Source: Verrucomicrobiota bacterium
GTDB taxonomy: Bacteria; Verrucomicrobiota; Verrucomicrobiia; Limisphaerales; UBA11358
Assembly: GCA_050010435.1 (NCBI GenBank)
Contig: JBEKKZ010000002.1
Span: 64-64,063 of the forward strand
Length of the DNA: 64,000 bases
Direction: 5' to 3'
In this document: positions 534 through 21,100 of the stretch, piece by piece
How positions within the stretch are numbered: the stretch's first letter is position 1
Layout: each line of letters opens with the position of its first letter
Translations under genes and position numbers: made by a program
The notes under the pieces: model-generated
What the model was told of the DNA's origin: nothing
The model's input: the letters and a program-made list of their open reading frames with translations, nothing else
The model's database searches: none

Positions 534-2951
534 TTACGGAGTATGCATCACGCGGAAGAACATTTGCACGTTGTCCCGCGTCGGGGTCAGGTAACTGATG
601 GACCCGCCGGTGCCGGGGATGTTGGTGCTGATGTTTTGCCAACTGCCGGTGAGGGCGGTGATGCCCTGAATCTGGTAGTTGACGCCCTTCTGTGTATCGA
701 AGGCGATTTCCGCCGCCGTGTAGATGGCGATGGTATTGGTCGTACCGTTGACAATGTCATCGCCATCGAAGTAGATCACGCCGTTGCCCACCGTAAAGCC
801 GGCTTTCGGATTGAGACCCAGGGCATACATCATCCAGTTCGGCACGCCAGCGCTGTTGTTGATGGCGTCAGGGCCGGCAGCGGGGTTGGTGGCAAAGTTG
901 TTGCCGAAGTATTGGATCTCCCACGCATCCGGCAGGCCGCCGGTGGTGGAAATCCCGGTCAGATTGGCAATGGAAGCCTTGAGCAGACCGACCGCGAACG
1001 GTCCGTTGTGAACGCCCAAACTGCCGTCATTGGAGACGAACTGCCAGTTGTAGACGGCCTGCAAATATTTCGTCGGCCAGTTGGTCTGGGTTGTTCGGAT
1101 CGAAGTCTGGACCACGCCGCCCGCGACATAGTTGGCGGGATTCGCCTGATAGGTCGAGTTCGGGAGGAGCATGGACAGTTGGTTGAGCAGAATCTGAACC
1201 TGCGTCTGGATGCCTTGGCTGTAGCCGTAACCAACATAATCAGGAGCCAGTATATCAAAGTTGGTAACGGCGCCGTGGCATTGGGTGCAGACATAGGCCA
1301 CCGGAATCTTGACGCCCAGGCTGTTGGTGTAACTCATCTTGGTGCTATGGCCGCCAGCCAGGGTGAACGCCGGATCGTTGGTAGCTATCGTCTGCATGTG
1401 GCAGCCGACGCAGGTGTCGGACACCACATTGGCGTGCGGCGCGCTGGGAATCACTTGCCCGTAGGTCACGGCGTTCACGCCCTCAAGCATGTCAGCCTGC
1501 GGGCTGTCATGCGTGCCAAAGCTGACGCCGCCAGCCCAGTTGGTCTGATTCAAAGGATATTTCGCCAACATGTTGGTGACGGAACCGTTGCGGTTGTTAT
1601 GGCATTCCATGCAGAAGCCACCGGCGCCGGCATTCGTAACCACCGTGCCATCGGAGAGCGTAACGTTATAGCTCAAGCGTAATTGGTACGGATTGGAAGC
1701 ATTATGCGGGTTGTGGCAGGCCTGACAGGTAATCGCTTCGTAGGTCGTGTTGGGGGTGGTGGTTAAAATATTGGTGGAAAACGCATTCGCTGAAATAACA
1801 TTGTTTGGATACAAATTCTGCGCACTCATACCGCCAGCCGTGGCCCAACCAACGAAGCCAGGTGCCGTATGACATCGGACGCAGGCGGCGCTGGTCTCTC
1901 TGGCGGAAGAGGCATGGACTGAATTGTTCCATTCGGCACTTTCGTATTCAGTGTTCAGGCTGTCGTGGCATTGCGAGCAGTCGCCCGCGCCGTAGCTGAC
2001 GGAGATAAAATTGGTGTTTCCTACCATGCCATTCTGCACCGGATGCTGACTGCCGGGACCGTGACAGTTTTCGCATTGGATGTTGGCCAGGTTCTGCAAT
2101 GGCGCCGGCATGGCGGCCCAGTTGCTGTTGGTCAACACAGCCGGGAAAGTCCAGCCGTATTCCTTCGCTACGTCGTCAAAGCCGCCGTTGACGGCGAACG
2201 AGTTGGTGTCATACCCGACGACGTGACACTGAATGCAACTTGCGTTGTAATAGCTGCTGACCTGGCCATTAATGGCCCGGGTGAAGAACGACGCATGGAG
2301 CGTATTCGTGTAAATGGGGTAAATGATTGGCGCATTTAGGACGCCGCCACTATGGCAGGCCTCGCAAGTATTCACGCCATAATAAGTGGACGCCGTGATG
2401 GTGGTAGCAATGTTCGTCGTGGTCGGGGAGATGGTGTTCGTTCCGCTGATACTAGTCGTAGTGATCGTGGCCAGGACGGTGTATTGTCCGACGACATCCG
2501 GGCGGAAAAAGGTCCGGCCCGACGGGCCCGCCAGTTGAAGGTATGGTGTGGGGGCCGCATTATTGATTCCACCCGTGACGCGATCCCCCGTCTTAAAGAG
2601 CGGCACATTGGTGCCCAACGGACTGTTGGTCAACACCGCCAGCGAACCCAGTGGCTTGTTGGTGCTGGGGAGCGACCAGGTGACGCTAAGAATGTTCGAA
2701 GGCGCAATGGAAGCGGTCACCATGGCGTCAAGATAAACTGGTTCGCCCAAGGCGACGGTGCCGATGCCGGCGGAGAACTGGACATTGGTCAGCTGATACC
2801 TTGCGATTTCAGTCGGTGTGAGGGGACGCTGGGTAACCTGGCCATTCATGGCTATTACCGACGCCTCCACCCTGGTTGCTGTTCCAACCGCGATGAGTAC
2901 ACCCGCCATCAGGCAGGCTGCGGCCATTCTCATGGAAGTATTCATTTTCAT
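534..2951 (-). CDS. Secreted multiheme (9 CxxCH) c-type cytochrome with C-terminal putative sorting domain
   Basis: N-terminal signal peptide; CEACH, CIQCH, CENCH, CSQCH, CVRCH, CQACH, CMECH, CVGCH, CTQCH; DGSLGVHN motif; GLPDAWE...GVPNWMMYALGLNP module; ends YQIQ...W...FFRVMHTP. Confidence 0.9.
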   Translation of the reverse strand: MKMNTSMRMAAACLMAGVLIAVGTATRVEASVIAMNGQVTQRPLTPTEIARYQLTNVQFSAGIGTVALGEPVYLDAMVTASIAPSNILSVTWSLPSTNKPLGSLAVLTNSPLGTNVPLFKTGDRVTGGINNAAPTPYLQLAGPSGRTFFRPDVVGQYTVLATITTTSISGTNTISPTTTNIATTITASTYYGVNTCEACHSGGVLNAPIIYPIYTNTLHASFFTRAINGQVSSYYNASCIQCHVVGYDTNSFAVNGGFDDVAKEYGWTFPAVLTNSNWAAMPAPLQNLANIQCENCHGPGSQHPVQNGMVGNTNFISVSYGAGDCSQCHDSLNTEYESAEWNNSVHASSARETSAACVRCHTAPGFVGWATAGGMSAQNLYPNNVISANAFSTNILTTTPNTTYEAITCQACHNPHNASNPYQLRLSYNVTLSDGTVVTNAGAGGFCMECHNNRNGSVTNMLAKYPLNQTNWAGGVSFGTHDSPQADMLEGVNAVTYGQVIPSAPHANVVSDTCVGCHMQTIATNDPAFTLAGGHSTKMSYTNSLGVKIPVAYVCTQCHGAVTNFDILAPDYVGYGYSQGIQTQVQILLNQLSMLLPNSTYQANPANYVAGGVVQTSIRTTQTNWPTKYLQAVYNWQFVSNDGSLGVHNGPFAVGLLKASIANLTGISTTGGLPDAWEIQYFGNNFATNPAAGPDAINNSAGVPNWMMYALGLNPKAGFTVGNGVIYFDGDDIVNGTTNTIAIYTAAEIAFDTQKGVNYQIQGITALTGSWQNISTNIPGTGGSISYLTPTRDNVQMFFRVMHTP

Positions 2952-3022
2952 ATTTGCTCTGATTTTTTAAGTTAAACCATCGCGCTTACTTGATTAAAAC
3001 CGTCGCCAAACGCCGACCGTTA

Positions 3023-21000: not shown

Positions 21001-21100
21001 CAAACCACTCATTGCCACCAATGGCAATTTGACGGTGTCCGACACCAATGCCATCGGTTCCTCGCCGCAGCGGTTTTATCGCCTCATGGTCTCACCCTGA
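18080..21100 (+). CDS. Secreted S53 peptidase, paralog 2 (one extra Ig-like repeat)
   Basis: EVSLDIE, ASGDSD, GGTSCAAP; two GF.SG..GG.F.VT.Q.F.LTN repeats; ends QRFYRLMVSP; start uncertain. Confidence 0.92.
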   Translation: MLKFRSLLGLRSVGMALFFSAIYPGIAAERQVLHGHVPSAVARFNLQPTGQLPPTKSLQLAIGLPLRNQAALTGLIQQLYDPASPDYHQYLTPEQFTEQFGPTEQDYEEVKYFARANGLTVSGTYDNRLLLDVTGSAAAVEKAFHITLRTYRHPTEARDFFAPDTEPTVDAALPVVDIQGLSDFSKPHPKLHKINAVNATPQSGSAPDGSGAYFGNDFRNAYAPNVTLTGAGQMVGLLEFDGFYSNDIAAYAAAAGGGRTNIVIQTVLTNGVSGTPGYSGISGANVEVSLDIEMAIAIAPGLAKVVVFEGNQPNSVLNSMLTFSNTVKNLSSSWGWSGGPSTTTDNIFKSMQVVGQSFFNASGDSDAFTAGASSVNGVDNTSLYNAPSSSPYITQVGGTTLTTGTGSSYSSETVWNWGYDSNAGGYVGSSGGISSYYSLPSWQTNVSNLAGRGGSTSNRNIPDVALTADNVYVAYGNGSSEEVGGTSCAAPLWAGFTALVNQQAVIADRSPVGFVNPAIYAIAAGSSYAVCFHDITTGGNTWSNSPNLFYATNGYDLCTGLGTPAGQNLINALAGPPDTLVITPASGFAASGAAGGSFNVTAQFFLLTNSGAASLNWTLANTSLWLNVSPGSGTLASGGQTTVTANLNSAAYNLAVGTYSANVWFTNRTTGVVQLRQFTLQALQPLAVSPTNGFTSSGPVGGSFGVTTQNFSLTNLGAASLKWSVNNTVSWLTASPNSGALAPGGQTTLTVSLNSAANSLASGTYNANVVITNQNGGAVALPFILLVGQPLVQNSGFEAGTFTNWTQSGNTTYTSVTSNSGFVHSGTYGAALGPSPSLGYLSQTLPTFAGQNYLLSLWLDNPTNSYGATPNQFLVQWNGTAIFNQTNMPFATWTNLQFIVTATGSSTVLQFGFENTPYYLGLDDISVTPIPVPAFRTATKTSSTFNLTWGTVTGLVYQVQYKTNLLQTNWINLGKPLIATNGNLTVSDTNAIGSSPQRFYRLMVSP

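Follow-up and report, generated by a model that had tools for sequence, protein, structure and literature searches.

The genome of a soil Verrucomicrobiota bacterium contains, within a 64,000-nucleotide stretch of contig C2 (bases 64-64063; this whole stretch is referred to as the window), three genes encoding exported proteins which end in a similar C-terminal module, hereafter called the tail. One gene encodes a nine-heme c-type cytochrome and the other two encode S53-type proteases, S53-1 and S53-2. Genes and tail domains are located at the following window positions:

534-2951, minus strand: gene of the nine-heme c-type cytochrome; 805 amino acids (aa), exported, with MtrC/MtrF-like and c7/c3-like heme domains; ends in the tail
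537-779, minus strand: tail domain of the cytochrome, approximately residues 725-805; it diverges most among the three copies
14767-17511, plus strand: gene of S53-type protease 1; 914 aa counted from GTG
17266-17508, plus strand: tail domain of S53-1, approximately residues 834-914; the alignment to the hidden Markov model (HMM) reaches to within 1 aa of the stop
17954-21100, plus strand: gene of S53-type protease 2; open reading frame (ORF) of 1048 aa
20846-21097, plus strand: tail domain of S53-2, approximately residues 965-1048; the copy used for modeling

The translated cytochrome contains nine CXXCH motifs and a signal-peptide-like N-terminus, and Pfam matched the multiheme families PF14522, PF22113, PF14537, and PF09699. 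S53-1 and S53-2 are tandem paralogues, and a pro-kumamolisin activation domain was found by Pfam in both. In S53-1 this domain is followed by BACON-like and CBM_4_9-like domains and the tail; S53-2 has the same architecture but contains two BACON-like domains before its tail. The true start of S53-1 is probably located a few codons downstream of the GTG, and translation of S53-2 likely starts at the Met at residue 43 or 57; the ESM Atlas record of S53-2 begins at residue 57. The endings quoted in the initial annotation were present in all three translations. The cytochrome terminates in ...YQIQGITALTGSWQ...QMFFRVMHTP, S53-1 in ...YQVQYKTNLLQTNW...RRFYRLLVLP, and S53-2 in ...YQVQYKTNLLQTNW...QRFYRLMVSP, each followed by the stop. 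Signal-peptide-like N-termini were likewise seen on all three proteins, two of them flagged by a heuristic and that of S53-2 judged by eye. Scans of the whole proteins gave no Pfam or NCBIfam match in the last 80 residues or so of any of the three; choice_anch_C showed a weak, sub-threshold match in S53-1 immediately before the tail.

The three endings are one homologous module, and their similarity goes beyond chance. An HMM was built from 35 other tails of this genome, excluding the three window proteins and two close paralogues, and 32,552 ORFs were searched with it. The model recovered S53-2 (E = 1.3e-17), S53-1 (2e-13), and the cytochrome (1e-9, aligned over ORF residues 753-808), and it matched 66 times in real ORFs versus 0 times in reversed ORFs. 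The C-terminal module proposed to be common to the cytochrome and the two proteases was thus found again by a model built without them. Additionally, the tails of the cytochrome and S53-2 showed 27% identity over 96 columns in BLASTP (E = 3e-4). A module length of about 50 aa, as originally suggested, was not borne out; the tail comprises about 75 aa, corresponding to strands A-F of the fold predicted below.

Forty tails of this genome (alignment A1) were compared with Pfam and NCBIfam at E ≤1. No Pfam family matched more than 2 of the 40 tails, and no NCBIfam model matched more than one. Titles and abstract openings of the papers listed in literature searches contained no description of this tail; it may be mentioned inside paper bodies or in subscription journals. 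The tail is a very large, uncatalogued domain family centered on Verrucomicrobiota and lacking a curated model. Just upstream of the tail, several carriers contain a short acidic motif, D-G-x-x-N-W-x-E-W-x-A-G-T-D-P-x-D (A1 columns), which we take to resemble thrombospondin-type-3 or calcium-binding linkers. A related stretch (…LPDAWEIQYFG…NPAAGPDA…NWMMYALGLNP) is encoded in the cytochrome gene at about window position 780-900 on the minus strand.

The abundance of the tail was determined in the entire genome. A loose-pattern search detected 26 endings among 21,141 ORFs; an HMM made from these 26 matched 62 ORFs, with the last copy always 0-8 aa from the stop, and the iterated HMM matched 65-67 ORFs. 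Terminal position had been set beforehand as a test, and it was found in 64 of 65 carrier ORFs (copy ≤10 aa from the stop). In a crude gene call the tail was present in 60 of about 3203 genes (~2%); the module is therefore abundant genome-wide rather than rare. Seventeen of the 60 tail genes have another tail gene no more than three genes away, and a 3473-aa subtilase carries three spaced copies, the last one being terminal. Contig ends truncate five tail genes (C10:138-507 and the far end of C10, C7:1-750, C16:2-1219, C27:3-3008, and the end of C19), and contig C10 has near-identical tails at its two ends. The assembly may break at such repeated tail sequence, which makes tail counts per genome lower bounds.

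Almost all carriers have signal peptides, and their passenger domains are mutually unrelated. A home-made crude rule, used instead of SignalP, was positive for 45 of 66 carriers as compared to 575 of 2512 long background ORFs. Among the 21 carriers missed by this rule, a signal peptide was recognized by eye in six; contig ends truncate five, another six are fragments of <140 aa, and four are unclear. The module thus resides on Sec-signal proteins, as had been predicted. Passengers identified in 51 scanned carriers include Peptidase_S8, Pro-kuma_activ, GH44, pectinesterase, arylsulfotransferase, RCC1, LRR_5, FG-GAP, PKD, MBG/YDG, and Ig, and none of the families found in these 51 proteins covers the tail. 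Further carriers are one cupredoxin and one GH30-like protein; S53 proteases are represented three times, and many carriers are adhesin-like repeat proteins. The cupredoxin (C1:1001158-1002024, L042:9258-10127) is an exported protein of 289 aa with Copper-bind and Big_7 domains before its tail, and the next gene (L042:10161-11156) encodes a CusF and SCO1/SenC protein. Together with the tailed nine-heme cytochrome, the tailed cupredoxin gives a hint that redox and copper proteins are positioned extracellularly.

The tail is widespread beyond this genome. In a sample of the order, the profile matched 40 of 41 genomes, giving between 6 and at least 126 matches per genome under capped scoring; the exception, G032, is 94% complete and gave 0 matches. 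In an even sample of the phylum, 65 of 151 genomes were positive (E ≤1e-5) and three groups were free of the tail (g22 0/14, f29 0/24, f36 0/14), these phyletic counts being taken without regard to relatedness among the genomes. Group g22 is a genus of family f22, which also contains G121 with 27 matches. A search of 1.84 billion cluster representatives yielded 87,484 matches at E ≤1e-3, the weak end of which is probably in part generic FN3 (fibronectin type III), and 8,365 at E ≤1e-10. ESM Atlas matches were Verrucomicrobiota clusters with scores up to 0.85. Close relatives originate from metagenome-assembled genomes of Limisphaerales or Verrucomicrobiae and carry the source names 'hypothetical protein', 'subtilase family serine protease', or 'protease pro-enzyme activation domain-containing protein'. 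The best 120 tail matches of S53-2 were all S53-type proteins with a terminal tail (120/120). Among the best 120 homologues of the cytochrome, which are close relatives (≥64% identity) with Verrucomicrobiota as the organism name wherever one was given, 113 have kept the terminal tail and the other seven were judged to be truncated or frameshifted. Furthermore, the tail is kept in 118 of 120 DUF6923-type orthologues, a set likewise confined to close relatives.

The genome also contains a PEP-CTERM system with one exosortase, ten endings above the TIGR02595 cut-off and about 20 detected by pattern. PEP-CTERM consists of a short motif, a transmembrane helix, and a basic tail, whereas the tail studied here is predicted to be a soluble, folded domain of 75 aa without a hydrophobic helix; PEP motif, transmembrane helix, and basic cluster are all missing from the three window endings. 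Both classes, which co-exist in this genome, nevertheless occupy the same final slot on paralogous passengers. Over the complete passenger, two tail proteins (C32 and C1:848.9 kb) share 40-42% identity with a PEP-CTERM protein (C14:65.8 kb) whose ending passes TIGR02595, and the alignments end exactly at the start of the tail or of PEP-CTERM. A third tail protein contains two copies of a domain present in a PEP-CTERM protein of contig C8. At C8:33244-37727 on the plus strand, five PEP-CTERM paralogues are arranged in tandem, one of which has a passenger domain in common with the tail protein C1:850633-852360. In the 41 genomes of the order, the same passenger was detected in 8 genomes, at 18 loci in total. 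The tail closes eight of these loci and PEP-CTERM three (in three different genomes), and one ends otherwise; the remaining six are N-termini of giant proteins extending beyond the sequence examined. Paralogues of one passenger family thus end in either the tail or PEP-CTERM at the same position, which is a new observation. Filling the slot of PEP-CTERM in paralogues is the behavior expected of a sorting or anchoring module, and the 'choice-of-anchor' families of NCBI rest on a like alternation of sorting signals on one passenger family.

With middling confidence, we regard the tail as a dedicated localization module and somewhat favor anchoring or docking over a translocation signal. The passenger would be exported by Sec and the tail would fold in the periplasm, giving a folded localization handle; an envelope partner, either a protein or a glycan, would then recognize this handle and the passenger would be passed to the cell surface or kept there. 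Verrucomicrobiota are major degraders of polysaccharides and proteins in soil, water, and guts and, to our knowledge, essentially nothing is known about how they place their enzymes outside the cell. A single end-module on about sixty exported proteins of this genome and in tens of thousands of public protein clusters would provide a handle on enzyme placement. The tail could predict the surface and secreted proteome from sequence, serve as bait for a receptor or translocon, and possibly be used as a display tag. Its presence on the MtrC-like nine-heme cytochrome suggests that this protein is placed outside the cell, which, if true, bears on extracellular electron transfer in this lineage.

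The structure of the tail was predicted with AlphaFold2 (AF2). The model of the S53-2 tail (alignment A1) had a mean pLDDT of 86 and six strands, located at residues 24-29, 34-39, 45-51, 60-67, 72-77, and 88-94 of the 95-aa piece. For the cytochrome tail (alignment A2), strands B-F were modeled with confidence (pLDDT 84-96 between residues 41 and 95 of the 95-aa piece), and the A-strand region had a pLDDT of <50. The list returned by Foldseek was dominated by FN3 domains (E ~0.01). FN3 also filled nearly all of the top 50 rows in VIA-align with a root-mean-square deviation of 2.2-2.9 Å over 67-78 residues and middling Z-scores of 6.0-6.9, in a range (Z <8) that can reflect only a common arrangement. 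Homology to FN3 is weakly backed by matches of the A1 profile to the Fn3-like protein 3mpc (E = 3e-4) and to the FN3 of gp130 (E = 0.014); the profile also weakly matched CBM32/discoidin 4zy9 (E = 6e-5). The tail is accordingly predicted to form an FN3-like beta-sandwich of about 75 residues with strands A, B, C, C', E, and F, resembling FN3 domains (Pfam fn3 clan; 3mpc, 1cfb, gp130 D3) in strand order and core residues. In contrast to the canonical seven-stranded FN3 (A B C C' E F G), the model is six-stranded; it stops after strand F, and the seventh (G) strand is missing. Alignments to solved FN3 domains cover their first 70-80 residues and end about 15-25 residues short (e.g., 3mpc 3-78 of 96), and the chain runs on for 0-8 aa beyond the aligned F strand, the ending pattern being 'RFYR[VL]xxxP-stop'. 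At E ≤1, PF00041 matched 0 of 40 tails and fn3_SORL1 matched one (0.02). The initial annotation had named a match to a known Ig or CBM domain without a sorting role as evidence against its proposal. The predicted FN3-like fold is indeed of a known Ig-like kind; no Pfam or NCBIfam model covers the tail.

The module was furthermore surveyed in the 150 best-scoring of the 1.84 billion cluster representatives, which are multi-copy proteins by construction. Of these, 119 end in a copy ≤10 residues from the C-terminus and contain 2-10 copies whose period of about 76-86 aa is too short to accommodate a G strand. Among the other 31, most show a period of about 90-100 aa and resemble ordinary FN3 arrays or fragments. 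The FYR motif is kept in 274 of 356 internal copies as compared to 112 of 119 terminal copies. The constant feature is that the last element of the protein is such a module.

Several observations weigh against a localization module. Since the module also occurs in tandem arrays elsewhere, it is not intrinsically a terminal signal, and with the FYR motif retained in internal copies as well, the terminal copy has no distinguishing sequence feature. Non-terminal placement was seen in one carrier here: a cytochrome paralogue on contig C16 has an FN3-like match near its N-terminus. No extracellular spacer and binding fold is commoner than FN3, and terminal position alone may therefore reflect domain grammar. 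The signal-peptide calls depend on a crude rule; the genes around the three window genes are housekeeping genes (hemA, efp, glycosyltransferase, SpoU methylase, MBL-fold protein, and tilS); and searches for secretin, GspD-N0, DUF1559, and SprA and among neighboring genes, described below, revealed no machinery specific to the tail. The C16 paralogue (C16:58533-60230, minus strand, locus L072) is a multiheme cytochrome of 566 aa with 28% identity over 523 columns to the window cytochrome; it has no C-terminal tail, and its FN3-like profile match covers residues 17-125, just after the signal peptide.

These points bring up the possibility, which we judge somewhat unlikely, that the tail is an ordinary FN3-like spacer, adhesion, or carbohydrate-binding domain which is habitually placed last and plays no role in localization. 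The predominance of FN3 in both fold searches, the weak profile matches to 4zy9 and 3mpc, tandem arrays with conserved internal copies, and the many adhesin-like repeat carriers agree with such a domain. Canonical FN3 (PF00041), however, is internal in this genome (L053 474-549, L084 59-129, and L096 44-117), whereas the tail is terminal in 64 of 65 carriers here; the passengers are enzymes and redox proteins without a common substrate, and the tail alternates with PEP-CTERM on one passenger family.

The missing G strand would leave the F edge free, and it is conceivable, though extremely improbable, that another protein contributes a strand completing this edge in trans, as in chaperone-usher pilins, building fibers or a surface lattice. 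Such strand complementation would fit the six predicted strands with the protein ending 3-8 aa past strand F, the alignments to solved FN3 which stop before the domain end, and the array periods of about 76-80 aa, which are too short for a G strand. This argument is based on prediction, though; sandwiches of 3+3 strands can be stable alone, and no donor strand or partner is known. Prediction of a two-copy complex (residues 15-95 of A1) gave a score of 0.00 and was uninformative for or against self-association.

Returning to a localization module, the proposed handle resembles in its logic a C-terminal domain (CTD) of T9SS (type IX secretion system) or a dockerin. The T9SS CTDs of Bacteroidota (type A, Por_Secre_tail PF18962/TIGR04183; type B, TIGR04131) are likewise small beta-sandwiches at the extreme C-terminus of diverse signal-peptide cargo, and they share with the tail Sec export, functionally unrelated cargo, and dozens of copies per genome. 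The tail differs from them by its predicted FN3-like six-strand topology, by its tandem arrays, and by the phylum in which it occurs; PF18962, TIGR04183, and TIGR04131 matched 0 of 40 tails at E ≤1 and none of the three whole proteins at E ≤0.1. Dockerins are small C-terminal modules on many secreted enzymes of one organism, docking them to a surface scaffold. Their fold is a calcium-binding helical pair unlike that of the tail, for which no cohesin-like receptor is known; PF00404 matched none of the 40 tails, and its matches in carriers fall in FG-GAP regions outside the tail.

The initial annotation had proposed an export or surface-sorting signal for an uncharacterized secretion pathway. 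Terminal position, signal-peptide cargo, abundance, and the slot shared with PEP-CTERM support sorting; the FN3-like fold, the internal tandem copies, and the lack of specific machinery do not, so that the pathway itself stays conjectural and anchoring or docking fits at least as well. Since the module works in tandem arrays as well, multivalent binding that retains or docks proteins at the surface appears somewhat likelier than a pure translocation signal. A stronger version, which we consider unlikely, would make the FYR tail the cargo tag of an undescribed Verrucomicrobiota sorting pathway with its own receptor or translocon, a functional counterpart of the Bacteroidota T9SS that handles about 2% of the proteome and whose receptor completes the open F edge of an FN3 fold lacking the G strand. 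If true, that pathway would serve extracellular proteases, glycoside hydrolases, and multiheme cytochromes.

A partner or export machinery was searched for in this genome and across the phylum. SprA (TIGR04189) was not found in this genome, a result without a positive control since the model matched none of 14 control genomes. Four secretin loci were detected, namely two GspD-type T2SS (type II secretion system) clusters and two PilM-secretin clusters. A gene for a 1519-aa tail protein lies 56 bp downstream of one PilM-secretin operon, and another such operon is two genes away from three tail genes. Of 23 prepilin-type genes, 6 were located no more than three genes from a tail gene, versus a baseline of 285/3203, which is suggestive only. 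Response regulators, the largest family among the neighbors, were rejected as partner, as 7 of 53 within three genes of a tail gene is about baseline. Two secretin genes appear to be split, at C2:251-254 kb (L045:10353-13077; an N0/Secretin_N part of 475 aa and a Secretin part of 420 aa) and at C1:983.8-986.7 kb (L041:11854-14728; a TPR part of 731 aa and a Secretin part of 239 aa); each could be genuinely split or result from a frameshift or an assembly error.

In 150 phylum genomes, GspD-N0 (PF21305) was detected in 53 of 64 genomes with the tail and in 52 of 86 without it, a weak association with an odds ratio of 3.2 without phylogenetic correction. Eleven tail-positive genomes lack a GspD-N0 match, including G121 with 27 tail matches; ten of them were tested and all ten have a secretin. 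DUF1559/SBP_bac_10 (PF07596) pseudopilins were detected in 14 of 64 tail-positive versus 43 of 86 tail-negative genomes and were dropped as partner candidate because of this negative association. Profiling with these two families did not yield the dedicated export machinery which had been anticipated, GspD-N0 being weakly and DUF1559 negatively associated with the tail. The families rich in DUF1559/SBP_bac_10 (f29 21/24, f36 12/14), in which a genome can have up to about 300 first-look candidates, are those without the tail, and the expansions of tail and DUF1559 look complementary within the phylum.

These data bear on the possibility that the tail is a T2SS determinant, being recognized as a folded domain by GspC, GspD, or the pseudopilus tip and maybe clipped after secretion. 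According to PMC7949064, the Fn3 domain of Pel3/PelI is essential for T2SS secretion, with loop 3 as a key signal, and is cleaved off afterwards; the Fn3 of Pel3 (4u49, Z 6.6) was among the fold matches of the tail. For CbsA, PMC9190976 describes a C-terminal FnIII domain needed for SecB interaction, stability, and inner-membrane transport, which is absent from the secreted form. Both are, like the tail, FN3 modules on secreted hydrolases, but they are seven-stranded single cases rather than a proteome-wide tag, and the module is N-terminal in Pel3/PelI and C-terminal in CbsA. Along with these precedents, the four secretin loci, the tail genes adjoining PilM-secretin operons, the nearby prepilin-type genes, and the secretins in all tested genomes lacking GspD-N0 would be in line with T2SS recognition. 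Secretins are near-universal, however, and thus do not discriminate between tail-positive and tail-negative genomes; GspD-N0 is common in genomes without the tail and absent from eleven with it, the pseudopilin association is negative, and T2SS substrates elsewhere carry no common tag according to PMC7949064. A T2SS determinant is therefore regarded as quite improbable.

The CbsA case (PMC9190976) is also the precedent for a tail which merely aids targeting or folding during Sec export, as in the interaction of FnIII with SecB, and has no function outside the cell. We consider this very improbable: the precedent is a single protein, arrays of up to about ten copies and giant carriers make chaperone docking unlikely, and the PEP-CTERM paralogues are exported without a tail.

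Two further genes of the window were noted. The hemA gene (3023-4198, minus strand), encoding the glutamyl-tRNA reductase of heme synthesis, shares the strand of the cytochrome gene and lies 72 bp upstream of it. An ORF of 1050 aa (8505-11657, plus strand) lies inside the span between the cytochrome and the proteases; it encodes neither a signal peptide nor a tail and is not part of the feature.

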